A DNA stretch of 41,742 nt. Origin: Candidatus Hydrogenedentota bacterium. Its GTDB lineage: Bacteria > Hydrogenedentota > Hydrogenedentia > Hydrogenedentales > SLHB01. This document shows positions 5,262 through 31,308 of the stretch, piece after piece (within the stretch, counting starts at the first letter, position 1; every line of letters starts with the position of its first letter). Position numbers and translations under genes: made by a program. The notes below the pieces were generated by a model that searched no databases, was not told the origin of the DNA, and saw only the letters and a list, made by a program, of their open reading frames with translations. The stretch covers positions 1-41,742 of the forward strand of contig JAWXCN010000019.1 in NCBI GenBank assembly GCA_034408725.1, in the 5' to 3' direction.

Positions 5262-6470
5262 GTGTATCTTCTCGTCCTGTTCAAAGTGGCCATCTACAGC
5301 CTCATCGCGAACAAACTGCGCTCGTTCCTCGCCGTATTGGGGGTCATCATCGGCGTAGGCGCGGTGATTGCCATGCTTGCGATCGCAGCCGGAGCGCAGT
5401 CGCAGGTCATGAACAGCATCTCTTCAATGGGCACAAACCTGCTGACCGTGCGCCCCGCGCAACGCGGTTCGGGCGGCGTTATGTCGGGGACTGAACAAAA
5501 CCTCACGGTCGAGGATGCGCAGGCAATCCTTGCCGAGGTGCCTGGTATCGAACAGGTCGCGCCCGTTGTGCAGAACCGCGCGCAAATCAAATACTTCGAC
5601 AACAATACCGGCACAAGCATCATGGGCGTGACCGTCACCTATTTCCCATTGCGGAATTTTGAAATTGAAAAGGGCCGCGTGTTCACGGACGGTGAAGAAC
5701 AGCGCATGGCGCGCGCGATCATTCTTGGTCCAGTGACCGCGGAAAACTTGTTTGGCACGGAGGACCCCGTTGGCGCAACGGTAAAGGTCAACGGGATCAA
5801 TTTCGAAGTGATTGGCGTAACGAAGGCCAAGGGTGACCAAGGCTGGTTCAATCCCGACGACAACGCTTTCGTACCCTACACAACCGCGATGAAGCAGTTG
5901 TTTGGAATAGAGTACCTGCGTGAAATCAGCATCAAATGCTCCGAAGCGGATGAACTTACTACCGTTCAGGAAGCCGTCATTGCTCTTATCCGCAAGCGCC
6001 ACCGCACGGAGCCTGGCGCTCCGGACGACATCGAAATCCGTAATCAGGCGGACTTATTGACGACCGCGACTGAAGTGACACGGACATTTACAATCTTGCT
6101 GGGCGCTGTTGCGAGCATATCGCTGCTCGTTGGCGGCATTGGAATCATGAATATCATGCTGGTGACGGTCACCGAACGAACCCGGGAAATCGGGATTCGC
6201 AAAGCCATCGGCGCGAAAGACCGCGATATACTGCGGCAGTTTCTGTTTGAAGCAATTCTTATGAGCGCGCTTGGCGGGATGATCGGTATCGGCGCGGGCG
6301 TTGGCGCGGCCAAGACCCTCTCGGCGCTCACCAGTTTCACGACGGTGCTGGAAACACAGAGCATCGTCATGGCGATGGTGTTTTCGGCGAGCGTGGGCAT
6401 CTTCTTCGGATACTATCCCGCGCGTCGCGCGGCAAAATTGAATCCAATCGACGCGTTGCGCTACGAGTAG
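5262..6470 (+). CDS. ABC transporter permease (MacB/FtsX family)
   Basis: RSFLAVLGVIIGV, SLLVGGIGIMNIMLVTVTERTREIGIRKAIGA, C-terminal PARRAAKLNPIDALRYE. Confidence 0.95.
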   Translation: MYLLVLFKVAIYSLIANKLRSFLAVLGVIIGVGAVIAMLAIAAGAQSQVMNSISSMGTNLLTVRPAQRGSGGVMSGTEQNLTVEDAQAILAEVPGIEQVAPVVQNRAQIKYFDNNTGTSIMGVTVTYFPLRNFEIEKGRVFTDGEEQRMARAIILGPVTAENLFGTEDPVGATVKVNGINFEVIGVTKAKGDQGWFNPDDNAFVPYTTAMKQLFGIEYLREISIKCSEADELTTVQEAVIALIRKRHRTEPGAPDDIEIRNQADLLTTATEVTRTFTILLGAVASISLLVGGIGIMNIMLVTVTERTREIGIRKAIGAKDRDILRQFLFEAILMSALGGMIGIGAGVGAAKTLSALTSFTTVLETQSIVMAMVFSASVGIFFGYYPARRAAKLNPIDALRYE

Positions 6471-6480
6471 TGCGGACGGA

Positions 6481-8247
6481 ATGACCAAAGCGCAAGGAGA
6501 GTACGTGGGAGTCGTGCTGTTTGCCAAACGCGTCTGTTTGGCAGGGACCACATGTTTTCTGGTGGGATGCGCCGCCATCGAGTTTTCGCGCGATCCGGTG
6601 ATACCCGACATAACCGTCCTCCCGAAAACGGATACCGTAGAACATGTCTCTCCCCCGCCGCTTCCGAGCCCGCCGCAAGTAGTGCCGGTTGAGAATGTGC
6701 CGGGTGATGCGCTGAATCTCACCGTAGAAGGCGCCATCGTGATGGCATTGCAGAACAATAAAGCGTTGATGGTGCAGGAGATTAACCCCGCAATTCAGGA
6801 CACCTTCGTGAAGGAACAGCGCGCGGTGTTTGATCCGGTCTTGTCCGCAAGTTATCTTGAGACCCGCGACGAGTTTGAGCGCGATCTGCTGATTCGCACT
6901 CCGGTAACATTTCCCGACGGGCAAGGCGGCGTTGTCAGTCTGGGCGAAATTTGGCAACCGGTCACCACTGAAGTGAAAACAAAATCGGAAACTGGCGACG
7001 TCGCTATCACCGAGCGGCTGCCCACGGGCACGGATATTACACTCGGCATGACGAAGGACCGCAGCGAAGTGCGGAACAAAAGCACCAATCCGAACCAGGT
7101 ATACGGCACCGACCTGGACACGGATACGTCGAGCCTTGACCTCACGGTGCGACAGCAGCTCTTGCGTGGCGGCGGCCTCGGAGTGAATCTTGCAAACCTG
7201 CGGCAGGCCCGGCTCGCCGCACTCTCTTCGGACTACGAGTTGCGCGGTTTTACGGAGGACCTCGTTTCGCAGGTCGAGCAGACCTACTGGAACTGTGTTA
7301 CCGCCCAACGCCAGATCAAAATTTTCGAGGACTCGCTGGTCGTTGCGCAAAACCAGGCCGCGGAAATCGAAGAGCGCATCAGCATAGGCCAATTGGCCGA
7401 AAGTGAGCGCGCCGCCGCGGACGCCGAAGTAGCGCAACGCAGAAGTTCGTTGATCGACGCGCGAAGCAACTACGAAACACTGCGCATCGCGCTATTACGC
7501 CTGTTGAATCCCCACGGCGACACCCTCCGGCCCGTCGAATTGAATCTCCTGAGCGATCCGATCCTGTCGCCGGTGGAGCTCAGCGACGTCGAAGCCGCCA
7601 TCCTCGTGGCGCAACGGCTGCGGCCTGATTTGAACCAGGCGAGACTGCAGATTCAACAAGATGAACTGGAGGTGGTGCAAACACGGAATGGTTTGTTGCC
7701 CCAGCTTGATGTCTTCTTGACGTTGTCAAAAAGCGTGAACAAAACCCATTACAGCGAATTGTTTCTTGTATCTACCCAAAACGATCGCGACGAACAGACC
7801 ACGACGCAGATCGGCGCCGACTTCAGTTATCCAATCGGCAACAGGGCCGCTCGCGCCGCGCATACGCGGTCAAAACTGAGCCGGACCGGCAACATGCGGG
7901 CGCTCGCGAATCTGGCGCAACTCGTCGAGCAGGACATTCGGACGGCGTACATCGAAGTGGAACGGTCCCGCCAGCAAATTGACGCGACCACCGCGACGCG
8001 TACGCTCCAGGAGACAACACTCGAGGTCGAGATCGAAAAGTTCCGTTTGGGCCGTTCAACGGTATTGTTGGTGTCGCAGGCGCAGCGGGACCTGCTGTCG
8101 GCGCAGATTGCGGAGGTAGAAGCTCGGGCGGCGTATCTGAACGCCCTCGTGAATCTGTACCGCCTCGAAGGTTCGCTGCTCGAACGGCGAGGTGTAATCG
8201 CTCCGGGGAAAGAGCCGGTTGTGCTTGAAAACGAACACGCTGCTTAA
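6481..8247 (+). CDS. TolC-family outer membrane efflux protein (probable lipoprotein)
   Basis: LTVEGAIVMALQNN, RPDL..ARL, LLPQLD, EKFRLGRST..V..AQ OEP repeats; lipobox-like LVGC; exact start uncertain. Confidence 0.85.
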   Translation: MTKAQGEYVGVVLFAKRVCLAGTTCFLVGCAAIEFSRDPVIPDITVLPKTDTVEHVSPPPLPSPPQVVPVENVPGDALNLTVEGAIVMALQNNKALMVQEINPAIQDTFVKEQRAVFDPVLSASYLETRDEFERDLLIRTPVTFPDGQGGVVSLGEIWQPVTTEVKTKSETGDVAITERLPTGTDITLGMTKDRSEVRNKSTNPNQVYGTDLDTDTSSLDLTVRQQLLRGGGLGVNLANLRQARLAALSSDYELRGFTEDLVSQVEQTYWNCVTAQRQIKIFEDSLVVAQNQAAEIEERISIGQLAESERAAADAEVAQRRSSLIDARSNYETLRIALLRLLNPHGDTLRPVELNLLSDPILSPVELSDVEAAILVAQRLRPDLNQARLQIQQDELEVVQTRNGLLPQLDVFLTLSKSVNKTHYSELFLVSTQNDRDEQTTTQIGADFSYPIGNRAARAAHTRSKLSRTGNMRALANLAQLVEQDIRTAYIEVERSRQQIDATTATRTLQETTLEVEIEKFRLGRSTVLLVSQAQRDLLSAQIAEVEARAAYLNALVNLYRLEGSLLERRGVIAPGKEPVVLENEHAA

Positions 8248-17870: not shown

Positions 17871-19370
17871 TTACCCTACGCTCCCTTCCAGACTGACGTT
17901 CAACAGCTTGGTCGCCTCGACCGCAAATTCCATGGGCAGATGATCAAATACTTCCTTGCAAAAACCGTTCACCACCATCGAAATCGCGTCTTCGGTGCCG
18001 ATGCCCCGCTGTTTGCAGTAGAACAACTGCGTTTCGCTGATTTTCGACGTCGATGCTTCGTGTTCAACACTCGAGGTGTTGTTGCGCACTTCGATATACG
18101 GAAACGTGTGCGCGCCGCACTGGTTGCCAATGAGCAGCGAGTCGCACTGCGTATAGTTCCGCGCCTTGGCGGCTTTCGGCATTACCATCACCTGTCCGCG
18201 ATAACTGTTGTTGCCGTGCCCCGCGGAAATCGTCTTGGAAATGATCGTGCTCTTGGTGTTGCGGCCCATGTGAACCATCTTCGTGCCGGTGTCCGCCTGT
18301 TGATAGTTGTTGCTCACTGCCACAGAGTAAAACTCGCCCACCGAGTTGTCGCCAATCAACAGGCAACTCGGATACTTCCAGGTAATCGCCGAACCGGTCT
18401 CGACCTGGGTCCACGAGATGCGGGAATTTACGCCCTGGCATTTGCCTCGTTTCGTGACAAAGTTGTAGATGCCGCCTTTACCTTCCTTGTCGCCGGCGTA
18501 CCAGTTCTGCACCGTCGAATAATTGATCGTCGCGTTGTCGAGCGCAATCAATTCCACCACCGCGGCGTGCAACTGATTCTCGTCGCGCATCGGCGCCGTG
18601 CAGCCCTCGAGATAGTTCACCGAACCGCCATCTTCCGCGATGATCAGTGTCCGCTCGAACTGACCCGTCTCCGCAGCGTTTATGCGGAAATACGTCGAAA
18701 GGTCCATCGGGCACTTCACGCCCTTCGGGATATAACAAAATGAACCGTCGCTGAACACCGCGCTGTTGAGCGCGGCGAAGAAGTTGTCATTTGCCGGCAC
18801 CACGGAGCCCAGATACTTCCGCACCAAATCCGGGTGCTCCAACACGGCTTCGGAGAACGAACCGAAAATCACGCCGCGCTTCTTGAGTATGTCCTTGTGC
18901 GTCGTAGCGACGGACACGCTGTCAAAAACCGCGTCCACCGCGACGCCCGTGAGGCGCTTCTGTTCGTCCAGCGGAATGCCCAGTTTCTCGAACGTCTCCA
19001 ACAGTTCTTTGTCGACTTCATCCAGGCTGTTCAGTTTTTTCTTTTCGCGCTTGGGCGCGGAATAGTACCGCTGCTGCTGATAGTCAATCGCGGGATACGA
19101 TACGTTGGCCCACGAAGGTTCTTTCATGGTCAGCCAGTGGCGATACGCTTTGATGCGCCAATCCAGCATCCACGACGGCTCTTCTTTGCGCGCGGAAATC
19201 TTGGCGATGACTTCTTCATTCAGGCCGGGATCAAAGGTCTCCGCCTCAATATCGGTTGACCACCCGTATTTATACGACTGATTGGCCATTTCCGCGATTT
19301 CGCGCGTACTCTGTTCAACCCGCGTGCCGGTATATTCCGGACCATCGAGCGCGTTATCTAACTTGCCCAT
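17871..19370 (-). CDS. sufB: Fe-S cluster assembly protein SufB
   Basis: [60 protein letters not shown]; start set at MGKLDN (19370). Confidence 0.96.
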
Positions 19371-19547
19371 CTCTTTTACCTCTGGTCTTGGAACCCCATA
19401 GTATACGCTGATTGGGATTCCGAGGCCACTTTCGCATTCGAATACATCGCCGTTTACAAATCCGCGTCCTGAGCCGGATTGTCCTTCCTTGGGAACAACA
19501 TCAAATATACTGAAAATATTCCCCGGAAAAGTCGCCGCCAATTCGGA

Positions 19548-22004
19548 CTACCGATAGTCAAGCACCGTGGCTCGCGTCCAATACTTTCCAAAACCCTTCA
19601 AAAATTCCTGGTGAATCGGGTCTGCCAAGTACCTTTCCAAGGCCGCGTCGTCGAGAAGGATGATCGTCAAACCAATGCTGTAGCTATCGTCGATAACAGG
19701 CCGGTTGCCTGCCAACGGTCTTCCGTAGCTCAACGAAATAACGCCGTCGATCTTACGCAATGATTCCAAACCCTGTTGAAAAGCCGCCACGTTCTCATCG
19801 GTCAACTCGTGACTCAGCCAGAAATACACCGCGTGCGTTACGGGCTTGTCCGCGTATTCCGTTGCTGATGGCGGTGCATCAGAGGAAAAACTGTCAATAA
19901 CCCCAATCTCTTTTCCATCCGGCTGAAACGCGATCGCCTCGGCTTTCCACGACGTCTCGCCAACACTCACCCGCATATACTGATTGACCAAACCGGCCGT
20001 GTATCCCGTCAGATTCTGCGCGCCGCCGACAGTCATGTGCGGCCAATCCTTCACGACTTTTTCGCCGTGATCGAGCCAGCTACCGCCGCCGGTGATGCAG
20101 TAGTAGACTCCGTTCTTGTAGCCGCGCTCGTACTCGTGGGTGTGACCGCTGAAGCATGCATCCACGCCGTATCGTTCCATCAGCGGCACAAGCTGCGACC
20201 GTTGCGTCGATTCACCGTCGATCCACAGCTCGCAATACGGCGGCTCGTGGATAAACAGGAAAGTAAACTTCGCGTTCTGGTTCGCCTTCAAATCCTTTTC
20301 GAGCCAGTGGAAAATATCCGGATATTGCGTAGCATAGTCGATGCACACAAAGTGACACCCGGCGTAATCAAAGGAATAACTGCCATAACCTGCGTCGTAG
20401 CCAGGAATGTCTTCGCTTGGAAAGGACGCAAACTTCCGCAGCACCGCTCCACGGTAATCGTCGTGATTGCCCCACGCAACGAAGAACGGTTTCTTTGTGC
20501 CGAGATACCGCGCCACGCGATCTAGATAAAACTTGCGCGTGTCTTCATATGCACCTCCATCTTCCGCCATGTCTCCGCAGGCCACACCAAACGCCGCGTC
20601 GGACGCCGCCATGTGGCGCATCATGCTGTTAGTTGGCTCATAGGGATCGGCCTCATACGATCCTTTGTTGTGTCCCTGGCTATCGCTCCACACGCCGAAT
20701 GTGAAGGGCGCAGCCGAATCCGGTGAGGTTGTAAAAGAGAGTGTTTTCTCTTCGTGATAGCTCTCGTCCCCCCGCGGCCCATGCGGATCGAGCATCACGG
20801 TGGCCGAATACGTCGTGGAAGGTTCGAGACCGAATAAGACGACCTTGTAAATGTAGGTGCCAAACCCGGAAGGCTGGACGTCTGCACCCCAACCATCACG
20901 CCTGCCGTCAATCCGGACGCTACCAAGTACCGGTTCGTTGATCTCCCACATGAGCGTGACGCCGTCTTTCTTCAGATTCATCATGTACGGCGCGGTAAGC
21001 ATGACAACCCGCGGTTCACCGGCAACGTCAATTTCAGCGTACAAAGTGGACGATTCCGCTCCGTATTCATCCTGAAGCTTAAGGTATAGGCCAAATCCCA
21101 TGGGATAGTTGAAAGTATGCGTCATCGATATCTTTTCCTCTGGTCTTTGAAGTTCAGACCAGGTCATAAGTGGACGCCCGTCCCACGCGCAAAGCTGGTA
21201 TCTAATACGGTCGCCCTCTTTATCGGCTACGGAAAACTCGAAGGAAACGGGCTCTCCCGTCTTTGCGCGTTTCTTCTCGGGTTTTCCGGTAAAGACCGGC
21301 GCCGTATTTTCCGGACGCTCAGGCCGCAGGCGCCCAATACTTTTGATGTCCGCTGCCAACAGTGCGTGGTCGTATACAGCAATGCGCGATACCGTTAGTG
21401 GATGTTCACCCTCAGGATCGGAAAAAAACAGCACAACCTCAGGATCCAGCGAATAACGACGGTTGATGTCCTGCGGCGCGCCGGTAACAACACATTCACC
21501 GTTGAGGTACAGGTCATATCGCCCCGCATCGAGATCGGCCGCGACAATAAACCGGTACCATTCGCCGGGAACGAATGAAAACTGCGGCGACCAGCCAACG
21601 AACCCAGCGCCGATCACCCCCTCACGGTTCAGGGTTATAATTTCGCCCCCATCGATGTTGGCCAGATCGGTTTGAAATATGCCGTGACTGCGCGTATCAA
21701 CGCCGGTTTTGAAATCAACAACAAAGGTATACGCGTTAATGCGTGTTTGCCCCGGCGCCGTCGGAATGCCATGCTGCGCGCGATAGAAACTTCCAACGCC
21801 AATCGCATACGCCCCGTCGCCGGTAACGTGCCCTTCAACAGTCGCATGCGTGCCTTGCAATTCGAGATCCGCGCCAACACTCGCTGCAAGCGGTTTCCCT
21901 GCATCGTTAAACTCCCACAACCCTGTTGGTTGAGGCAAGGCGTCTGCCTTGACAACCCAAGAGCTCAACAGGACGCAGGCGAAAAAGAAAACGGCCCTTC
22001 TCAT
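19548..22004 (-). CDS. Secreted multidomain metallophosphoesterase (LamG-like + Ig/FN3-like + purple-acid-phosphatase-like + C-terminal Dabb barrel)
   Basis: SDSQ, GDMA, GNHD, HEPPY, SGHTHEYER motifs; N-terminal GLWEFND...YTFVVDF jelly-roll; C-terminal HAVYFWL...YLADPIHQEF. Confidence 0.8.
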   Translation of the reverse strand: MRRAVFFFACVLLSSWVVKADALPQPTGLWEFNDAGKPLAASVGADLELQGTHATVEGHVTGDGAYAIGVGSFYRAQHGIPTAPGQTRINAYTFVVDFKTGVDTRSHGIFQTDLANIDGGEIITLNREGVIGAGFVGWSPQFSFVPGEWYRFIVAADLDAGRYDLYLNGECVVTGAPQDINRRYSLDPEVVLFFSDPEGEHPLTVSRIAVYDHALLAADIKSIGRLRPERPENTAPVFTGKPEKKRAKTGEPVSFEFSVADKEGDRIRYQLCAWDGRPLMTWSELQRPEEKISMTHTFNYPMGFGLYLKLQDEYGAESSTLYAEIDVAGEPRVVMLTAPYMMNLKKDGVTLMWEINEPVLGSVRIDGRRDGWGADVQPSGFGTYIYKVVLFGLEPSTTYSATVMLDPHGPRGDESYHEEKTLSFTTSPDSAAPFTFGVWSDSQGHNKGSYEADPYEPTNSMMRHMAASDAAFGVACGDMAEDGGAYEDTRKFYLDRVARYLGTKKPFFVAWGNHDDYRGAVLRKFASFPSEDIPGYDAGYGSYSFDYAGCHFVCIDYATQYPDIFHWLEKDLKANQNAKFTFLFIHEPPYCELWIDGESTQRSQLVPLMERYGVDACFSGHTHEYERGYKNGVYYCITGGGSWLDHGEKVVKDWPHMTVGGAQNLTGYTAGLVNQYMRVSVGETSWKAEAIAFQPDGKEIGVIDSFSSDAPPSATEYADKPVTHAVYFWLSHELTDENVAAFQQGLESLRKIDGVISLSYGRPLAGNRPVIDDSYSIGLTIILLDDAALERYLADPIHQEFLKGFGKYWTRATVLDYR

Positions 22005-22050
22005 AAGTCCCCCTAGATTCGTTCGATATGAAGTTTGGATATCAGACCGT

Positions 22051-22375
22051 ACATCCCCCTAAATCCCCCTTCAAAGGGGGACTTTGAAGATCGATTATGC
22101 GTGTGACTTTTGCCCAGCAATTGCGATTCATGACACTAGCGTGAGTCCCACTAGCCTAACAGCCCGTGGCAGAAGTCCAAAATGACCATTTCGATATCGA
22201 AAAACGCCTTACTTTCCGGGGGTCAGAACGCATCAAAATTACTTCGAAAATGTCTATTTCGATATCGAAAAACGCCCTATTTTCCAGGGGTCGGAACGCA
22301 TCAAAATTACTTCTGCCACGGGCTGCTAAGCCCTCCTTGCTTAAGTCCCCCTTTGAAGGGGGGGTGGGGGGATGT
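22051..22375. repeat. Inverted pair of REP-like palindromes flanking an inserted element
   Basis: ACATCCCCCTAAATCCCCCTTCAAAGGGGGACTT (22051-22084) and near-reverse-complement AAGTCCCCCTTTGAAGGGGGGGTGGGGGGATGT (22343-22375). Confidence 0.8.
22160..22325. mobile_element. 166-bp MITE-like non-autonomous element
   Basis: Perfect 17-bp TIRs CAGCCCGTGGCAGAAGT (22160-22176) / ACTTCTGCCACGGGCTG (22309-22325); CTAA on both flanks (22156-22159, 22326-22329); interior is two 68-bp tandem units. Confidence 0.8.
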
Positions 22376-22429
22376 TCTTCTTACGTTCCCAATCCATCGC
22401 CACATATTCACTTGAACCTCCCAACGGCC

Positions 22430-22473
22430 AAAATAAAATCAGGCGCCCCCGCCATTATGCGAAGGCGCCTGAT
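22430..22473 (-). terminator. Intrinsic terminator after ahcY
   Basis: 10-bp stem ATCAGGCGCC/GGCGCCTGAT followed by a T-rich run on the minus strand. Confidence 0.7.
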
Positions 22474-22491
22474 AACATTCGAGATTCCCGA

Positions 22492-23943
22492 TTAATACCG
22501 GTAATGCTCAGGCTTGTACGGACCTTCCGCGGAAATGCCGAGATATTTCGACTGCTTCTCCGTTAATGTCTCCAGCTTCGCGCCGAGCTTTCCGAGGTGC
22601 AACCGCGCGACTTCTTCATCCAGCTTCTTCGGCAGCGTGTACACCTTGCCGATTTCGTATTTCTCCGTCTCAGTCGCGAGCGAGATTTGCGCCAGCGTCT
22701 GGTTCGAGAACGAGTTGGACATCACAAACGACGGATGACCCGTTGCGCAACCAAGGTTCACCAAACGCCCGCGCGCAAGCAGCACGATCGCCTTGCCGTT
22801 CGAGAAAATAAATTTATCCACCTGCGGCTTAATTTCAAGTTCTTTCACGCGCCCGGCCTTCACTTCATTCTCCAGCCACGCGACTTCGATTTCGGAATCG
22901 AAGTGGCCGATGTTGCACAGAATTGCCTCGTCTTTCATGGCGACAAAATGCTCGCCGCGAATCACGTCGCAGCAGCCTGTCGTGCTCACAAAAATATCGC
23001 CCTGCGGCACGGCCTCGGCCATCGTAACGACCTGATACCCTTCCATGCAGGCCTGCAACGCGCAAATGGGATCGATTTCGGTGATCAACACGCGCGCGCC
23101 AAGACCTTTCATCGCCGCCGCGCAACCCTTGCCCACATCGCCGTAACCGGCAATCACGACGACCTTGCCCGCGACCATGACGTCCGTCGCCCGCTTGATG
23201 CCGTCCGCCAATGATTCGCGGCAACCGTACAGGTTGTCGAACTTCGACTTCGTAACCGAATCGTTCACGTTAATCGCGCGGGTGCGGAGTTTTCCAACGT
23301 TCATCATTTGGTACAGCCGATGAACGCCCGTCGTCGTTTCCTCGGAAACGCCGATCCAGTTCTGCACGTACTCGCGCCACTTGTTTGGATTTTCCGCGTG
23401 TACGCGATGCAGCAATTCGTCGATGATCTGAATCTCCGGATTCGACGTATCGATCTTCGGCAGCGCGCCCGTCCGTTCGAATTCTTCTTCAAAATCGCAG
23501 CCGCGATGAATCAGCAACGTCGCGTCGCCGCCGTCGTCCACAATCAAGTGCGGACCCGACCCGTCCGGCCACGTGAGCGCCTCCAGCGTATAGTCCCAAT
23601 ACTCCTGCAAGGTCTCGCCCTTGATCGCGAACACCGGAACGCCGGTCTTCGCAATGGCCGCCGCCGCGTGGTCCTGCGTCGAGAAAATGTTGCAGCTCGC
23701 CCAGCGCACGTCCGCGCCCAGCGCGACCAGCGTCTCGATCAGCACCGCCGTCTGGATCGTCATGTGCAACGAACCCGTCACCCGCTGCCCTTTCAACGGC
23801 TGCGCGGACGCGTAGCGATCGCGAATCGAAATCAACCCCGGCATCTCCTTCTCGGCGATGTCGATTTCCTTGCGGCCCCAGTCCGCCAACTTCATATCCG
23901 CAATCTTGTACTGCGGCGTTTTTGTAGCCGTTACCACTGCCAT
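22492..23943 (-). CDS. ahcY: Adenosylhomocysteinase (SAH hydrolase)
   Basis: [75 protein letters not shown]. Confidence 0.98.
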
Positions 23944-23959
23944 TACATCGTCTCCTCGT

Positions 23960-24721
23960 TCAACGCTTCTTTACCGTTTTGCTTCGGACACCCTGGACCA
24001 CTATTTCGCACACTTCCACGGGCCGCTCAATGCCCATGAAATTTACCTTCACAAACTTTCCCGCGGGCACCGGCGACTCGATCCCACGCACCACGCTTGC
24101 CGGCGCCGCAATCCCGCTCGCCGTTTTCGACTCGGCCCATTCCATCGTGAGGAACGCAATGTTCACCGTCTCGCCCATGATGTCGGGCCGCGCATATTCC
24201 GGATGGCCAACAGACCCGAGATAAATCTCGCCACTGCTCAGGCCGACCCGCAGGTCCTCGCCTACCATCGCCTTTCCCTCGATCGCCGCGCGCAACGCCC
24301 GATCACGGTGCGCGGCGCCGGAGAAAAACGCGAGATAACGGTCGCCCATGTATTTCACCGGCACGCCGTCGTGCCGCAATGTCAATTCCGTCATCTGGTA
24401 AAACATGCCGTTCGCCCAGATCGCGAAATCGCGCGCGCGCATGTTCAGCGAACGCTCGTACGCGCCCGCCACGCTCGATACCAGCACCGTCGCCTCGAAC
24501 ACGTCACGCCCGGATTCCCCGACACCCAATAACCAGTCCACCGACACGCCCAGCAACTTAACAAGTCCGCCCAGCACCGCAATGTCCGGCGCGTTCTCGC
24601 CGCGCTCCCATTTCGATACCGCCTGCGGACTAATGTTCAGCGCATTCGCAACGTCCTGTTGCTTCAGCCCGCGCTTCTCCCGCTGACCACGTATCCGTTT
24701 CGCCAAGTCGGGAAGAAACAT
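23960..24721 (-). CDS. XRE-family HTH regulator fused to a degenerate class III nucleotidyl-cyclase domain
   Basis: N-terminal [36 protein letters not shown]-terminal [33 protein letters not shown]. Confidence 0.85.
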
Positions 24722-24755
24722 AATTGCGCGCGCAAGCCTCCAAAGCGTTGAGAAA

Positions 24756-24797
24756 AGTTTAGCCTACACCCACAAACTGCGCAATAACGATATGGTT
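24756..24797 (-). promoter_or_regulatory. Putative sigma70 promoter of the XRE-ahcY operon with an adjacent imperfect palindrome
   Basis: Minus strand TTGCGC (24784-24779), 17-bp spacer, TAAACT (24761-24756); AACGATATGGTT at 24786-24797. Confidence 0.45.
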
Positions 24798-24831
24798 GTG
24801 CCGATTGCCGTTCCAGTTGAGCCAGATTGCT

Positions 24832-24874
24832 AAAAGGGCCATCCCGCGACGCTGCATACGCCTGGGATGGCCCT
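24832..24874 (-). terminator. Intrinsic terminator after glutamine synthetase
   Basis: 11-bp stem AGGGCCATCCC/GGGATGGCCCT followed by a short T run on the minus strand. Confidence 0.7.
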
Positions 24875-24907
24875 GGATTCTAACCGATTCCGCCAATTGC
24901 GGTACTG

Positions 24908-27082
24908 TTACTTGATAAACAGCATCTCCTGGTACGTCGGGAGCGGCCATAGGTCGTCGGCGATGATGCCTTCGAGTTCATCAACTACCGCGCGAAGCCC
25001 CTGCATCGCGGGGATGACGGAGTCGCGACAATAGTCGCAGGCATGGTGCGCTTCCGCGGGCACGGCCTTGCGCTTTTCGTCGAGCGCTCGGATCGTCGCG
25101 TGAAGATTGGCCACGAGCGTGGTGACGTAGGTCAACGTTTCCGCGTCGGCCTTGATGCCGACTGCGTTGAGGTTGGCGAGGCTGATGGCAAGTTCGCTTT
25201 GATACCGGATCGCCGCCGGGAAGATCATGGTCTTGGCGATTTCGAGCATGAGGTTTGCTTCGACCTTGATCGTCTTCACGTATTGTTCGGCGTAAACTTC
25301 GTAGCGGCTTTCGGTCTCGCGGCGCGAGAGAACTTTGTACTTTTCGAACAAGGCGATGACTTCTTCCGATTTGATCACCGGCAAGGCGTCGGGCGAGGCC
25401 TGCAAGTTCGGAAGGCCTCGTTTGGCCGCTTCCTTGTGCCAGGCTTCTGAATAGCCGTCTCCGTTGAATACGACGGCTTCACTCTCGGCATAGACGGTCT
25501 TGATCAGGGATTCAACGGCCTTGCCGAGTTTTTCCGGCGTGCTCGTGTCTGCCTTCTCCAGAAGGTCCGCGCAGTATTGCAGCGATTCCGCCATGATCGT
25601 GTTGAGCGCGACGAGCGGTCCGGCGATGGATTGGCTCGAACCGACGGCGCGGAACTCGAAGCGGTTGCCGGTAAACGCCATCGGGCTCGTGCGATTGCGG
25701 TCGCCGGAGTGGCGTGGAATGGACGGCAGCACATCGACGCCGACGTGCAACACATCTCGTTTCGATTGCACTGGCTTGCCTTTCGCAATGGACTCGATGA
25801 TCTCGGTGAGTTCGGCGCCAAGAAACACCGAAATGATCGCCGGGGGCGCTTCGTTCGCGCCGAGCCGGTGATCGTTCGATGCCGTCGCGACGACGGAACG
25901 AAGCAGCGGCGACCAATGATAGACCGCGCGGATCATCGCCATGCAAAACACGAGGAACTGCGCGTTTTCCGCGGGGGTATCACCCGGATCGAAGAGGTTG
26001 CCCGCGAGGGATGATCCCATCGAGTAGTTCAGGTGTTTGCCGGAGCCGTTCACGCCGACGAACGGTTTTTCGTGGAACAAACAGACCATGCCGTATTTCT
26101 CGGCGAGGCGCTTGAGCGTGACCATGATGAGCTGCTGATGATCAGTTGCGAGGTTCGCATACTCGAACACCGGCGCAAGTTCGTATTGGCTCGGCGCGAC
26201 TTCGTTGTGGCGCGTCTTGATGGGAATGCCAAGCTTGAAGCATTCACGTTCGACCTCGAACATATAGGCAAGCACCCGCTCGGGGATCGCGCCGAAATAA
26301 TGGTCCTCGAATTCCTGTCCCTTGGGCGGCGCCGCGCCGAACAGGGTGCGTCCCGCGTTGATCAGATCAGGCCGGGCAAAGTAGAAGTTTTTGTCGATCA
26401 GGAAGTATTCCTGTTCGGCGCCGGCTGTGCTCGATACAAATGCGCCGTGCGTTCCAAACTGTTTGAGAACTCGTTGCGCCTGCGCGTTGAGCGCCTGCAT
26501 CGAACGGAGTACAGGGGTCTTTTTGTCGAGCGCCTCGCCGGTCCATGATACGAAGGCCGTGGGAATGCAGAGGGTTGTGCCATTCGGGTTCTCGAGGATA
26601 TACGCCGGGCTGGTGACGTCCCAGATGGTGTATCCGCGCGCCTCGAAAGTCTGCCGGATGCCGCCGGAGGGAAACGACGAGCCGTCGGGTTCGCCCTGGA
26701 TCAACGTCTTTCCGTCGAACTCGGCGACGGTCCCGCCGTTGCCGTCGGGACTAAAGAACGAGTCGTGTTTTTCCGCGGTCAACCCTGTGAGCGGGTAGAA
26801 AACGTGGGCGTAATGCGTCGCGCCTTTCTCCAAGGCCCAGGATTTCATTTCGGTTGCGACGGCGTCGGCGGTGCTCGCGTCGAGTATCGACTTGGTTTCG
26901 ATAGTATCCTTCAAAGACTTGTACACGGCTTTCGGGAGGCGCTTTTGCATGACCGGCAAACTGAATACGTTTTCGCCGAAAAGCGTTCCGGTCGGCACTT
27001 CGGAAAACGGGACGCTGCAACCCGCCGACGACTGATTCACCGCGCGTGCGATTGCTGATGTTCTTGCTGAATTTCCGCTCAT
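24908..27082 (-). CDS. Glutamine synthetase type III (GlnN-like)
   Basis: [90 protein letters not shown]; start 27082 or 27100. Confidence 0.95.
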
Positions 27083-27409
27083 GACATTTCCATTATTCAT
27101 TGGTTAAAAGCCCGGCAACCAATTGCGTCGGTATTTGCACCGCGCGCGCAACGGCTACGTGTTAAAGGTTTCAGTTGATCAGAATAGTACGTTTACGTAG
27201 CTTTCCCGGCGAAATGTTACGAATATGATAGCCTCCTCTATTGTCTGCGCCTGTCCCTGCGCGCACCGTCCACGCTGCACCATTTAAACAAACCGGGTGA
27301 TAATACACGGGTTCCGTCGTGATCGGTAATGCGGGATTGTGCCGCAATCGGCCGATAAACGTCAGGTGGTTTTAAGGGAGCAAACACCATGCCGACGCGC
27401 GGCGCAGCA

Positions 27410-27418
27410 TGGTACGAT
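27410..27418 (+). promoter_or_regulatory. Putative extended -10 promoter
   Basis: TGGTACGAT upstream of SD GAGGAG (27433-27438) and ATG 27449. Confidence 0.4.
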
Positions 27419-27448
27419 ATGGAACCGCAACTGAGGAGTTTGGCCGCA

Positions 27449-28441
27449 ATGATTTTCCAATTACCTTGGCGCACACGCGCGGGCGCGCTCGTGTTCGCAC
27501 TGCTGAGCGCGGCGCACGCAGACGTTGGGTTTACAAGAACCAGCGGCGCGGTCGAAATCCGTATCGACGACAAGCAGTTTGCGACCTACCGATGGGCTGA
27601 TCCGGAGATCGCGCGCCCGTACTTCTGCAATGTGTATGCGCCAAATGGAACCGTGGTGACCCGGACCCATCCGCCCGATCCGGTCATCAATAAGGATAAC
27701 GCGGACCATGAAACGATGCATCCGGGTATCTGGCTCGCATTCGGAGACGTTAACGGACTCGACGTGTGGCGCAACAAGGCGCGGGTACGGCATGTCCGCT
27801 TCGCGCAGGAACCGGATACCGACGATACGCACGGCTACTTCACCGTGGTCAATGCCTATGAACCGTTGGAAGGATCATCCGCCGCGGGCATTCAGGAAGT
27901 GTGCAAATACGATATTTATCCGCTCGACATGGGCTGGTTCCTGATTGCGCAATCCGTGTTTCGGCCAGCCGCGGCAGGGTTCCGTTTTGGCGATCAGGAG
28001 GAAATGGGTTTGGGCGTGCGCGTGAACACGCCGATCACCGTCAAGTTCGGGTCGGGCGCGCTTCTCAACAGCGAAGGCGGCCGCAATGAATACGGGACTT
28101 GGGGCCAGCGCGCGAAGTGGTGCAGCGCATTTGGCAGCGTTAATGGAAGTATCGCCGGTTTAACGGTGATGCCTGGCCCCGGGAACTTCCGGCAGTCCTG
28201 GTTTCACTCTCGCGATTACGGCTTGATTGTCGCCAATCCGTTCGGCAAAAAAGCAATGACTGCGGCAGAGAAACCGGAGGTCGCACCCGATGTTACACCG
28301 GTCGCGCCCGGCGAAGAGTTCAGGCTTGCGTTTGGCGTGTTTGTTTTTTCAGGCGAGACCCCGCCTGACAACGCGACTGCGTATGAATGGTTTCAGGAGT
28401 TGTTGGGACAGAGCGAACCGCCGGCTGCGATAGCACCGTAA
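27449..28441 (+). CDS. Secreted PmoA-like (DUF6807-type) beta-rich hypothetical protein; not a methane monooxygenase
   Basis: FATY....RPYF..V.APNG..VTR, DH..MHPGIWLAFGDVNG.D.W, FGDQEEMGLGVR, WFHSRDYGLIVANPFG; signal peptide ending AHA. Confidence 0.7.
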   Translation: MIFQLPWRTRAGALVFALLSAAHADVGFTRTSGAVEIRIDDKQFATYRWADPEIARPYFCNVYAPNGTVVTRTHPPDPVINKDNADHETMHPGIWLAFGDVNGLDVWRNKARVRHVRFAQEPDTDDTHGYFTVVNAYEPLEGSSAAGIQEVCKYDIYPLDMGWFLIAQSVFRPAAAGFRFGDQEEMGLGVRVNTPITVKFGSGALLNSEGGRNEYGTWGQRAKWCSAFGSVNGSIAGLTVMPGPGNFRQSWFHSRDYGLIVANPFGKKAMTAAEKPEVAPDVTPVAPGEEFRLAFGVFVFSGETPPDNATAYEWFQELLGQSEPPAAIAP

Positions 28442-28893: not shown

Positions 28894-31308
28894 ATGCAGT
28901 ATCCCGGCATCAGAACGTGTTCCTGGCAAGGATTATCGATCCTCCTGCTGAGTATTTTTCTGGCGCCCATTCCCCTCCGCGCGGGCGACGATTCGATTCA
29001 GGCGCTCAAGACGTCCCTCGATGCCTTGCAAACTGACCGTGAGGCGTTGTTGCGCCGTTTGGAGTCGATAGAAAACGCCATCACCCAGCCCGCGGCGCCC
29101 AAGCAGGCCGAGCGGGTAATTACGAGCGAGGACCGCGCATTCTGGTCGTTTCAACCACTGACCCGCGCTCCGGCTCCAGTGGTGAGGAACACCGAATGGC
29201 CGCGCAACGCGATTGACGGTTTCATTCTCTCGGAACTCGAGGCTAAGGGAATTACCCCGGCGAACGAGAGCAGTCCCGCAAAACGAATCCGGCGGCTTTA
29301 CTACGATGTTATCGGGTTACCCCCGACTCCCGAAGCTGTGGCGGCGTTCGAGACGAATCCTACGCAGACCGCCTACGCCAAGGTCGTTGACGAATTGCTC
29401 GCAAGTCCCCGCTATGGAGAACGATGGGCCAGACATTGGCTCGATGTCGCCCGCTATGCGGACAGCGATGGCTACGAATTCGATCTCGAACGCCCAAACG
29501 CTTACCACTACCGCGACTTCGTGATTCGCGCGTTTAATGAAGACTTGCCGTTCAACACTTTCGTGAAATGGCAACTCGCCGGCGACGAGCTCGCGCCGGA
29601 TACGCCGATGGCCTTGGCGGCGACGGGATTCTGCACGAGCGGACCCACCATCGACAATCAACAAAGCGAACTGAACCGTTACGACGAACTCGACGACATG
29701 TTGTCGACGACCAGTGTTGCGTTTCTCGGCATGACCGTGTCTTGCGCGCGATGCCATGATCACAAGTACGACGCCATACCCACGCGCGACTATTACCGCA
29801 TGCTTTCCGCGTTCGCGACCACCAAGCGGCACAGCGCATTGCTTGCGCCGCGCGCGGAAGCTGATGCCTATACGAAACAGCTTGCGGAATGGGAAGCGAA
29901 AATGCACACCGCGCGCGCGGTTATTGATGGCTTGTTCGCGCCGGTGCGTGAATCTTTGAAGGCGTCAAAGATTCTCGCGTTGCAGGCATCCGACGCAGAC
30001 AAAGCCCTGTTGCAGGCGCCTGCCGACGATAAAAATGATGCACAAAAAGCGGCGATAAAAACCTTCGGCGAGGCCATCAAAGTCAACGATGACGAAGTGC
30101 GCAAGGTTCTCGATAGTGATATGCGCGAGACGGTTGCTGAAGCGGATCGTGCCCTCGCCGCGATCGAATTGGAGAAACCACAATCACCGCCGGTGGCATT
30201 GACACTGACCGATTCCAAACCTGTTCCCGAGGAAAGCTTTCTGTTGGCGCGAGGCAACCCCGACGCAAAGTCCGAAAAAGTCGCGCTGGGTTTCTTGAGT
30301 GTACTGCCCGGTGAAGGCGATGCGCGTTTCTCTCCTGAAACGCGCCGCGGAACTGACGCGCCCACGACATTTCAGCGCGCCGCGCTTGCAGACTGGATGA
30401 CGGACGTGGAGCACGGGGCTGGCCGTCTGACCGCCCGCGTGATCGTCAACAGGCTTTGGAACCATCATTTCGGGCGCGGAATCGTTAGTACGCCGAATGA
30501 TTTCGGCAAACAGGGAGACCGCCCCACGCACCCCGAATTATTGGATTGGCTCGCAATCGAGTTTGTCGAGAATGCATGGAGCCTGAAACATATTCAACGG
30601 CTTATCCTTTTGAGTGCAACATACCAGCAGTCGTCCGAGTTCAACGAATCGAATGCAGCGCAAGACCCGGACAACCACTTCCTCTGGCGGTTTACGCCGC
30701 AGCGGCTCGAAGCTGAAATCATTCGCGACGCGACCCTCTCGATCACGAATTGCCTAAATCAAAGGATGTACGGGCCGGGAGTTTACCCACACATGCCCGC
30801 GGACGCGGTCGCCACAGGCTCAACGCCCAAGTGGCCGTTGAATGCCACGGACGGCCCGGATACGTGGCGCCGGAGCGTCTACGTATTCGTGCGCCGCTCC
30901 GCGCGGATGCCCATGATTGAGACCTTTGATGCGCCTGACACTGTAGTCAGTTGCGGACGCCGGCTTTCGACCGTGACCCCCACGCAGTCCCTGGTGCTGA
31001 TGAACAGCGCGTTTTCCAACGGGCAGGCGACATTTTTCGCGGAGCGTATTCGCGAGGAAGTAGGAGAGGCTCCCACCGACTGGGTGTACCGCGCGTATCT
31101 CCTGGCCCTCAATCGCGCGCCAAGCGACGCCGAACTCGCATTGTCCTTGGGATTCATTGAGAAGCAAATTCAACGGCACCACCGGCAGGAAACCGCGAAA
31201 GTCCGGGCCAACGCATACGCGCTGCGGGACAAGGATATTCAGCAGGCCGCCCTGACTGACTTCGCGCAGGTTGTCCTCTGCCTCAACGAATTCGTATATG
31301 TCGATTAG
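28894..31308 (+). CDS. DUF1549 (PSCyt2) / DUF1553 (PSD1) domain protein
   Basis: FWSFQP, YGERWARHWLDVARYADSDG, QLAGD, CARCHDHKYD, RVIVNRLW..HFGRGIV.TP.DFG..G..PTHPELLDWLA, RRSVY, LNEFVYVD. Confidence 0.92.
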   Translation: MQYPGIRTCSWQGLSILLLSIFLAPIPLRAGDDSIQALKTSLDALQTDREALLRRLESIENAITQPAAPKQAERVITSEDRAFWSFQPLTRAPAPVVRNTEWPRNAIDGFILSELEAKGITPANESSPAKRIRRLYYDVIGLPPTPEAVAAFETNPTQTAYAKVVDELLASPRYGERWARHWLDVARYADSDGYEFDLERPNAYHYRDFVIRAFNEDLPFNTFVKWQLAGDELAPDTPMALAATGFCTSGPTIDNQQSELNRYDELDDMLSTTSVAFLGMTVSCARCHDHKYDAIPTRDYYRMLSAFATTKRHSALLAPRAEADAYTKQLAEWEAKMHTARAVIDGLFAPVRESLKASKILALQASDADKALLQAPADDKNDAQKAAIKTFGEAIKVNDDEVRKVLDSDMRETVAEADRALAAIELEKPQSPPVALTLTDSKPVPEESFLLARGNPDAKSEKVALGFLSVLPGEGDARFSPETRRGTDAPTTFQRAALADWMTDVEHGAGRLTARVIVNRLWNHHFGRGIVSTPNDFGKQGDRPTHPELLDWLAIEFVENAWSLKHIQRLILLSATYQQSSEFNESNAAQDPDNHFLWRFTPQRLEAEIIRDATLSITNCLNQRMYGPGVYPHMPADAVATGSTPKWPLNATDGPDTWRRSVYVFVRRSARMPMIETFDAPDTVVSCGRRLSTVTPTQSLVLMNSAFSNGQATFFAERIREEVGEAPTDWVYRAYLLALNRAPSDAELALSLGFIEKQIQRHHRQETAKVRANAYALRDKDIQQAALTDFAQVVLCLNEFVYVD

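Follow-up and report, generated by a model that had tools for sequence, protein, structure and literature searches.

A Candidate One-Component Regulator of ahcY Combining an XRE-Type DNA-Binding Head with a Class III Cyclase-Homology Domain

Methyltransferases are strongly inhibited by S-adenosyl-L-homocysteine (SAH), which cells must therefore detect and remove. To our knowledge, two SAH sensors are known, one an RNA and the other an ArsR-type protein, and both are found mostly in Proteobacteria. As described in a study of Proteobacteria, the RNA sensor, the SAH riboswitch, is a cis-linked, SAH-responsive element that is dedicated to operons carrying the SAH hydrolase gene ahcY and co-evolves with that gene (PMC4239095). 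The protein sensor, SahR, is presented there as an ArsR-family, SAH-responsive repressor of S-adenosylmethionine (SAM)-cycle genes in Alpha-, Delta-, and some Gammaproteobacteria, with ahcY as its most conserved target, autoregulation, a palindromic operator, and co-evolution with ahcY (PMC4239095). Here, we analyze a 41,742-nucleotide contig of a Candidatus Hydrogenedentota bacterium (JAWXCN010000019.1, assembly GCA_034408725.1; hereafter the window) in which ahcY directly follows a gene whose product joins an N-terminal helix-turn-helix (HTH) of the XRE type to a C-terminal class III cyclase-homology domain. We hold with great confidence that this protein is a one-component DNA-binding regulator of the ahcY operon, that is, of its own operon, in which the regulator gene precedes ahcY. 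Regulators of this family very probably control ahcY in many bacterial phyla. An initial annotation made from the sequence had suggested such a role and knew of no description of it; our full-text literature search likewise found none of an XRE plus cyclase-homology family of ahcY regulators. The family thus appears to be undescribed, its sensor domain being one not previously known from a one-component regulator of ahcY.

The regulator protein and its linkage to ahcY

The regulator gene (positions 23960-24721, minus strand) encodes 253 amino acids. Residues 10-64 (24530-24694, minus strand) match Pfam HTH_3 with 58.8 bits against a cut-off of 23 (E = 5.3e-16), and the helices of the structural model in this part (residues 3-16, 21-28, 32-39, 47-57, and 61-64) form a five-helix HTH_3 unit; the best sequence match of the N-terminal 70 residues is the P22 C2 repressor (E = 4e-16). 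The C-terminal half, approximately residues 73-241 (23999-24505, minus strand), matches Pfam Guanylate_cyc weakly but above threshold (residues 77-191; 26.3 bits, cut-off 21.9). An AlphaFold model built from an alignment of 26 relatives has a mean pLDDT of 92.7, and all of its top Foldseek matches in the Protein Data Bank (PDB) are class III cyclases: 2w01 (E = 4.6e-13), followed by CyaC, CyaB, photoactivated cyclases, and Rv1625c, with E values of 1e-11 to 5e-13 and target-normalised TM scores of 0.71-0.78. No solved chain spanning both halves was found among the PDB matches.

Alignment to the solved cyclases Cya2 (2w01) and P. aeruginosa CyaB (3r5g), which agree with each other, located the catalytic positions in the regulator. 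Ser83 occupies the place of the first metal-binding Asp and Leu191 that of the transition-state Arg. Retained are Lys123 at the purine-specifying Lys position (Glu in the guanylyl cyclase Cya2), Asp127 as the second metal-binding Asp, Asp180 at the second specificity position (Thr in CyaB, Gly in Cya2), and Asn187 as the transition-state Asn; Lys123 and Asp180 make up the pair that specifies adenine, a Lys with Asp or Thr. Both the losses and the retained residues are those named in the initial annotation, and its view of a catalytically dead cyclase fold is supported by the structural model and by the family-wide loss of the two residues. From 271 proteins, 195 of which matched the C-terminal part at E ≤ 1e-10, we kept 134 full-length members. 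Position 83 is Ser in 110 of them, Gly in eight, and Thr in six, and position 191 is Leu in 122 and Arg in nine; K123 is kept in 132, D127 in 130, D180 in 133, and N187 in 129. Trp102, Asn104, Arg141, His173, and Tyr176 are also nearly invariant. Among 81 unique regulators derived from genomes, three have Asp at position 83, two have Arg at position 191, and none has both. This residue pattern makes it highly likely that the regulator is catalytically dead, and on the same pattern an active adenylyl cyclase was rejected. We also rejected a phage or toxin-antitoxin type of XRE protein, since no partner gene accompanies it and its conserved neighbour is a metabolic gene.

A model of the regulator as a homodimer, which had been proposed as a check, passed with a median score of 0.74 against 0.00 for the best control; contacts agree between runs to 75% or more, with a partner pLDDT of 84 or higher. 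In calibration, 20 of 30 proteins with structures solved as pairs and one of 23 solved as single chains came up to the mark, counts that are only a rough guide here because the model used an alignment of our own and carried along two unscored SAH molecules. The predicted interface is the cyclase domain (residues 73-233, including 104, 111-112, 123-126, 171-178, 180, 182-187, and 191) and contains K123, D180, N187, L191, H173, and Y176, where the active sites of cyclases lie. Resemblance to solved cyclase dimers may account for this result.

The regulator gene ends 16 nucleotides before ahcY, as first annotated. The intervening gap (23944-23959, minus strand; ACGAGGAGACGATGTA) contains the ribosome-binding site of ahcY, GAGGAG, and is too short for a promoter or an operator. 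The 483-amino-acid ahcY product (22492-23943, minus strand), S-adenosyl-L-homocysteine hydrolase (adenosylhomocysteinase), matches TIGR00936 with 623.5 bits against a cut-off of 497.6 (E = 1.5e-187), as well as Pfam AdoHcyase and AdoHcyase_NAD.

This adjacency is widespread. A word-indexed protein search returned 1028 relatives of the regulator, the best 120 of which are all 59-86% identical to it and 240-281 amino acids long; those with a named source among these 120 come mostly from Hydrogenedentota, with one from Sumerlaeota. An exhaustive protein search gave 51 cluster representatives at E ≤ 1e-30. For gene linkage, two species-representative genome scans yielded 82 unique full-length loci after removal of 10 duplicates and two HTH-only hits; one of these scans kept the best 80 of 275 family loci, and a separate metagenome scan kept the best 80 of 549. 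Two loci end too early for the neighbour to be judged, which leaves 80 evaluable. In 62 of these, which carry the labels of about ten phyla, ahcY follows in the same orientation within 750 nucleotides: 21 of 21 in Hydrogenedentota, 17 of 19 in Latescibacterota, seven of seven under the label Nitrospiraceae, six of eight among unclassified loci, two of four in Sumerlaeota, two of two in Entotheonella, two of two under the label Nitrospirae, two of six in Planctomycetota, one of three in Gemmatimonadota, and the single loci of Omnitrophota and of the label Bathyarchaeia. No link was seen in Armatimonadota (none of two), Verrucomicrobiota (none of three), or Spirochaetales (none of one). Clearly bacterial regulator-ahcY pairs stand under the label Bathyarchaeia (L047) or Nitrospiraceae (L005, L011, L012, L023, L032, L034, and L062), and some loci so labelled encode regulators 70-72% identical to the Hydrogenedentota protein; these labels are probably binning or labelling errors. 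One bin contains two regulator-ahcY pairs (L005 and L023), as does genome G079.

A quick family tree with SH-aLRT support, midpoint-rooted and with many long branches, groups 64 rows with a support of 90: 58 that are linked to ahcY (including that of the window and the unevaluable L004), four linked to the threonine synthase gene thrC, and two from genomes that encode the regulator away from ahcY. Rows linked to ahcY are also found outside this set, and a quick tree rooted in this way gives no direction of residue loss. Every one of the 62 ahcY-linked regulators has D127 and N187; five of the 18 unlinked ones (L079, L080, L085, L090, and L093) have other residues there, the rows of this comparison being kin and not independent.

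The operator-promoter unit and its targets

A conserved operator lies before the regulator gene. In the window it is the 17-bp site CAACCATATCGTTATTG (24782-24798, minus strand; 20.5 bits), of the form CAAC-N9-ATTG with half-sites CAAYGA and TCRTTG. The pattern CAA[CT]-N9-[AG]TTG occurs 44-108 nucleotides before the regulator start codon in 68 of 83 unique upstream regions, where by our own arithmetic chance would give about 0.013 per region, and the conserved dyad CAAYGA-N5-TCRTTG is likewise found in 68 of the 83. The derived weight matrix reads T-CAAC-(G/C)-A-nnn-C-G-T-c-ATTG-y, that is, two 6-bp half-sites one helical turn apart.

The operator is built into a promoter. The TTG of its right arm begins a TTGnnn hexamer, and a TAnnnT hexamer follows exactly 17 nucleotides later: at least four of six positions match at this spacer in 40 of the 68 loci, versus at most 13 loci at any other spacer from 10 to 25. 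The operator therefore spans roughly -49 to -33, with its centre near -41, and overlaps the -35 element. In the window, the putative sigma-70-type promoter (24756-24784, minus strand) consists of TTGCGC (24784-24779), a 17-nucleotide spacer, and TAAACT (24761-24756); its -35 hexamer is weak and begins with the last three bases of the operator, and a stricter promoter scan did not call it. An anchored alignment of 67 upstream regions revealed a second box, cTCAACCg...CG.gA, whose CAAC precedes that of the main site by exactly 21 bp. In the window, this distal box (24803-24820, minus strand; TCAAC at 24820-24816) is conserved only in its left arm and inner CG; in Latescibacterota it is a full CAAC-N9-ATTG site. 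Three loci (L059, L060, and L068) carry three tandem operators at steps of 20-21 bp, the third of which fills the putative -35/-10 spacer and would be expected, from its position, to block RNA polymerase. A GGAGG (24741-24737, minus strand) lies 5' of the regulator start. Between it and the ATG there is a perfect 12-bp palindrome, TTGCGCGCGCAA (24724-24735, minus strand), which was not found at the same place in those upstream regions of relatives that were inspected.

No second operator scoring above 5 bits was found between regulator and ahcY in 60 related gaps (median length, 78 nucleotides); ahcY would thus be reached by read-through from the regulator promoter. The pair had been described as bounded by terminators on both sides. 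On the downstream side this stands: the intrinsic terminator 3' of ahcY (22438-22473, minus strand) is strong, with a 15-pair stem that includes 10 G-C pairs and is followed by TTTATTTT. On the upstream side, a hairpin 3' of the preceding gene (24835-24874, minus strand) folds at -30.3 kcal/mol (z = -4.65; none of 200 shuffles was equally good) and is likely a terminator that isolates the regulator-ahcY operon, with only four U residues after it (24834-24831) and no call by a consensus terminator scan. Just 3' of the ahcY terminator, at about 22345-22375 (minus strand), we noted an element made of a C-run, a short spacer, and a G-run (CCCCCCACCCCCCC..TTCAAAGGGGGA).

The neighbours of the pair are all unrelated to the SAM cycle. 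Upstream lies a gene for glutamine synthetase type III (24908-27100; Pfam GSIII_N, Gln-synt_C, and Gln-synt_C-ter), followed by genes for a DUF6807 protein (27389-28441) and a PSCyt2/PSD1 (DUF1549/DUF1553) protein (28894-31308); on the other side are genes for a Metallophos plus Dabb protein (19548-22004) and SufB/D (17871-19541). The initial annotation had seen neither an SAH or SAM riboswitch nor SahR or SamR. For RNA elements this is borne out, as Rfam families, those of SAH and SAM riboswitches included, gave no match at E ≤ 1 within 21500-25500 except two chance hits within coding sequence; a SahR homologue was not searched for. At the Rfam gathering score, no riboswitch was found before ahcY in 14 regulator-less relatives, at two loci of genome G016, or before metK, metF, and metH of the bacterium's own genome.

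If the protein controls ahcY, genomes that encode the regulator elsewhere should carry the operator before ahcY. Both Sumerlaeota genomes with the regulator away from ahcY do carry the operator-promoter unit there. In one (L200), the operator scores 26.0 bits and is joined to the promoter TTGTGA-17-TACAAT; in the other (L198), it scores 18.9 bits with TTGCCC-17-TAAAAT. In each, a second CAAC lies 21 bp upstream. As background, only six of 10.3 million positions in the window's own genome reach 18.9 bits and none reaches 24. Exact TCAAC-N9-ATTG matches number 16 and 51 in the two Sumerlaeota genomes, and four other sites of 19-21 bits all lie within open reading frames (ORFs). Adjacency in most loci, the operator over the promoter, and the operator before unlinked ahcY in two genomes thus bear out the proposed tie between regulator and ahcY.

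The wider claim, control of the methyl cycle, did not hold for the window's own genome. When the weight matrix was run over the full 5.17 Mb, 74 positions scored above 14 bits, and the only convincing intergenic operator among them is the regulator's own promoter. The top match (G000 C14:99-125; 23.3 bits) lies within the 3' end of an ORF that enters from the contig edge, and other intergenic hits break one consensus arm (on C110, ATTT for ATTG; on C32, before folC, CGAC for CAAC); these three were taken as chance and rejected as regulon members. No operator was found at metK, metH, or metF, whose best scores are -2.2, 4.0, and 6.6 bits. Given these results, the regulon is the regulator-ahcY operon, and the protein is a local regulator, not one of the whole methyl cycle.

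Diverged relatives have other targets, and the operator is kept before the regulator in the loci linked to thrC, purA, and metH. thrC (TIGR00260, 217.7 bits; about 5753-7174) directly follows the regulators L074, L075, L077, and L078; purA directly follows L079 and L080, L079 having a divergent purM in addition; and metH (5755-8088) directly follows L094. In a UASB14 bacterium (L082), a 19.3-bit operator (5748-5774) lies after the regulator and 190 nucleotides before an adenosine deaminase gene (5964-7004). Pocket residues differ in some of these lineages, the purA-linked members having D127P and N187S. Other diverged regulators precede genes without a clear theme. In a Verrucomicrobia-type clade (L090, L093, and L099), L090 and L093 have R83, A127, and S187; a PLD-like gene lies upstream in L090 and L099, a class II fructose-bisphosphate aldolase gene is convergent downstream in L093 and L099, and an APH/EcKL-type kinase gene directly follows the regulator in L090.

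Proposed mechanism and competing explanations

From the computed fold, the loss of two catalytic residues, the conserved linkage, the conserved operator-promoter unit, and the operator in trans, we infer DNA binding, co-transcription of regulator and ahcY, a ligand, and allostery as follows. The protein would act as a homodimer whose two N-terminal Cro/C1-type HTH heads bind the 17-bp operator CAAC-N9-ATTG, centred near -41 over the -35 element, and the second box 21 bp upstream would probably take up a further dimer, bound to the same side of the helix. The C-terminal class III cyclase-homology domain would dimerise in the fashion of cyclases. With Ser for the first metal-binding Asp and Leu for the transition-state Arg, it would be unable to hold metal and phosphates, while the Lys, Asp, and Asn expected to contact adenine and ribose are retained. 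Two interface pockets might therefore bind a non-phosphorylated adenosyl metabolite, and ligand binding, by closing the dimer, could shift the dimer halves and the HTH heads and so alter DNA affinity or contact with RNA polymerase. If the ligand were SAH, the AhcY substrate, more hydrolase would be made when SAH accumulates. A site centred near -41 on a promoter with a weak -35 element suits class II-type activation; a third site over the spacer, as in some Latescibacterota, would be in keeping with repression.

We base the ligand proposal on the residues kept and lost, on the targets of relatives (ahcY and the genes for adenosine deaminase, PurA, MetH, and ThrC), and on the parallel with the SAH riboswitch and SahR. 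The residue pattern makes an adenosyl compound without phosphates reasonably probable. SAH in particular is a tentative choice that falls somewhat short of an even chance. It comes first because it is the substrate of the controlled enzyme, because two of the targets found in relatives, metH and thrC, suggest a connection with homocysteine and SAM, and because SahR and the SAH riboswitch, the most consistent SAH-responsive ahcY regulators in the cited study, both sense SAH (PMC4239095). Taken whole, a dead-cyclase one-component regulator of its own ahcY operon that senses an adenosyl compound, SAH being the likeliest, is in our judgement slightly better than an even bet.

Several observations weigh against this explanation. 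Of 121 genomes sampled from the bacterium's own phylum, 33 have the regulator, most of these belonging to a single family (28 of 47), and 112 have ahcY; the regulator is therefore dispensable for the control of ahcY and one of several ways to achieve it. Among 14 genomes with an unlinked ahcY, two have a strong operator before that gene, one has a weak one (L206, 8.4 bits), and 11 have none, so the link to ahcY does not hold for diverged clades. The diverged genomes in which none was found are G016, G123-G128, and G131-G135; a weak operator was noted in G130, and G129 gave no ahcY match. Two distant database proteins with the same XRE head (P0130 and P0139; 39-47% identical) keep all six canonical residues, so not every family member is catalytically dead. 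Many of the invariant residues (N104, T111, E112, G172, H173, and Y176) fall in the predicted interface, and in the model they could serve dimerisation alone. Finally, adenosine or adenine nucleotides would account for the targets purA, purM, and adenosine deaminase no less readily than SAH.

P0130 and P0139 may be true DNA-binding adenylyl cyclases, and because they keep the full canonical set, the family seems to include, or to descend from, what look like true HTH-linked cyclases. Their genomic context could not be drawn from the scans made: a genome scan with P0130 gave one unrelated cyclase, and a metagenome scan with a generic HTH pattern gave only three full-length relatives (L099-L101), none of them canonical.

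The main rival to SAH keeps the same regulator and operator and lets the pocket sense adenosine, the product of AhcY, or adenine or another nucleoside. Adenosine drives the reversible AhcY reaction backwards, and a purine-nucleoside sensor could tune ahcY, adenosine deaminase, and purA so that adenosine does not accumulate. A pocket that has lost its phosphate- and metal-handling residues and retained those for adenine and ribose suits a free nucleoside no less well than SAH, and relatives stand directly before adenosine deaminase, with an operator (L082), and before purA (L079 and L080, with the divergent purM). Relatives also stand before metH and thrC, however, on the side of homocysteine, methionine, and SAM, and the purA-linked members, with their changed pocket, may bind another ligand than the ahcY-linked clade does. 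The known ahcY regulators treated in PMC4239095 respond to SAH. On this evidence we consider a nucleoside ligand unlikely.

Slightly less likely still is a cyclase-like domain that serves only as a dimerisation scaffold and binds no small molecule. In that case the regulator would simply control its own operon, holding AhcY at a constant level or at one tied to growth, or would take its cue from a protein partner. XRE-type heads do need a dimerising partner domain, most of the family-invariant residues are within the predicted interface, and cyclase-like folds have been reused without a nucleotide role, for example in Acinetobacter AdvA, which binds ZipA on the account given in 10.64898/2026.04.03.716176. 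A pure scaffold, however, gives no reason for the split between purine-specifying Lys and Asp and ribose-contacting Asn, which are kept, and the phosphate- and metal-handling residues, which are lost, nor for the change of pocket residues in clades with a changed target gene. A dedicated regulator tied to one metabolic gene across many phyla would, moreover, bear the usual mark of a metabolite sensor.

Least probable, and in our view improbable, is a domain that still handles phosphorylated adenine nucleotides, either by binding ATP, ADP, AMP, or cAMP as a signal of energy state or a second messenger, or by retaining a weak cyclase activity controlled by DNA binding: the second metal-binding Asp (D127), the Lys, the Asp, and the Asn remain, degenerate sites of other cyclases bind nucleotides, and P0130 and P0139 may be active, but the first metal-binding Asp and the Arg are never both present in the 81 regulators, the window protein has Ser and Leu in their places, and a link of cAMP to ahcY has no obvious logic.

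Returning to SAH sensing by a degenerate cyclase, we can extend the proposal to the family: the cyclase-homology domain would be an SAH receptor, and a few changes in its pocket would have re-aimed members at genes for other adenosyl metabolites, namely those for adenosine deaminase, PurA, MetH, and ThrC. This extension is possible but tentative, and we hold it less firmly than the control of ahcY itself.

Comparison with known systems

If this extended proposal is correct, SAH sensing would have arisen independently for a third time, SahR and the SAH riboswitch being the earlier two cases, and a class III cyclase fold would for the first time be seen as the ligand sensor of a transcription factor. 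Dead enzymes would then underlie an entire family of sensors for adenosyl metabolites across many mostly uncultured phyla. The family would explain the control of ahcY in part of Hydrogenedentota, Latescibacterota, Sumerlaeota, Gemmatimonadota, Entotheonella, and some Planctomycetota, and the cyclase-homology domain would join the domains by which one-component regulators are known to sense small molecules. For cyclase biochemists, it would provide a natural active site stripped of its phosphate-handling half. The compact switch, probably responsive to SAH or adenosine through a defined 17-bp operator, is also a possible biosensor.

Among DNA-binding proteins, the closest matches of the regulator's N-terminal 70 residues are P22 C2, 434, and lambda-type repressors. 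As in those systems, operators stand in tandem along the same side of the helix and one of them overlaps the -35 element, an arrangement that resembles cooperative binding and recalls PRM-type activation. Unlike them, the present gene is chromosomal and linked to a metabolic gene, and the partner domain of the HTH is a cyclase fold, not the oligomerisation and cleavage domain of the cI type.

The likeness to SahR is one of function, not of membership: the present family shares with it the linkage to ahcY, adjacent in 62 of 80 loci, and a predicted autoregulation. The DNA-binding fold is a Cro/C1 HTH_3, in contrast to the ArsR fold of SahR, and the sensor is a degenerate class III cyclase; Pfam and NCBIfam searches of the regulator gave only XRE-type HTH families and Guanylate_cyc, and no ArsR-type winged HTH. 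The operator is 17 bp of the form CAAC-N9-ATTG, whereas that of SahR is a 20-bp palindrome. The regulon is also far smaller, with no site at metK, metH, or metF. From the SAH riboswitch, the regulator differs in being a protein and not an RNA, and no Rfam riboswitch model matched the region 21500-25500 at E ≤ 1.

With the class III cyclases (Cya2, 2w01; CyaC, 1wc1; CyaB, 3r5g; Rv1625c, 4p2f), the regulator shares the fold, the predicted head-to-tail dimer interface, the Lys/Asp purine pair, the second metal-binding Asp, and the Asn. It differs from them in having Ser for the first metal-binding Asp, Leu for the Arg, and a fused XRE HTH. Degenerate GGDEF receptors offer a parallel, being a cyclase-like fold that has lost its catalytic residues and taken on another role. 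Acinetobacter AdvA offers another, since it has a nucleotidyl-cyclase fold without catalytic residues and with a different role, as the account in 10.64898/2026.04.03.716176 presents it. AdvA is described there as lacking the canonical dimer site and binding a division protein, whereas the domain studied here keeps both the interface and the purine pocket and is joined to a DNA-binding head.

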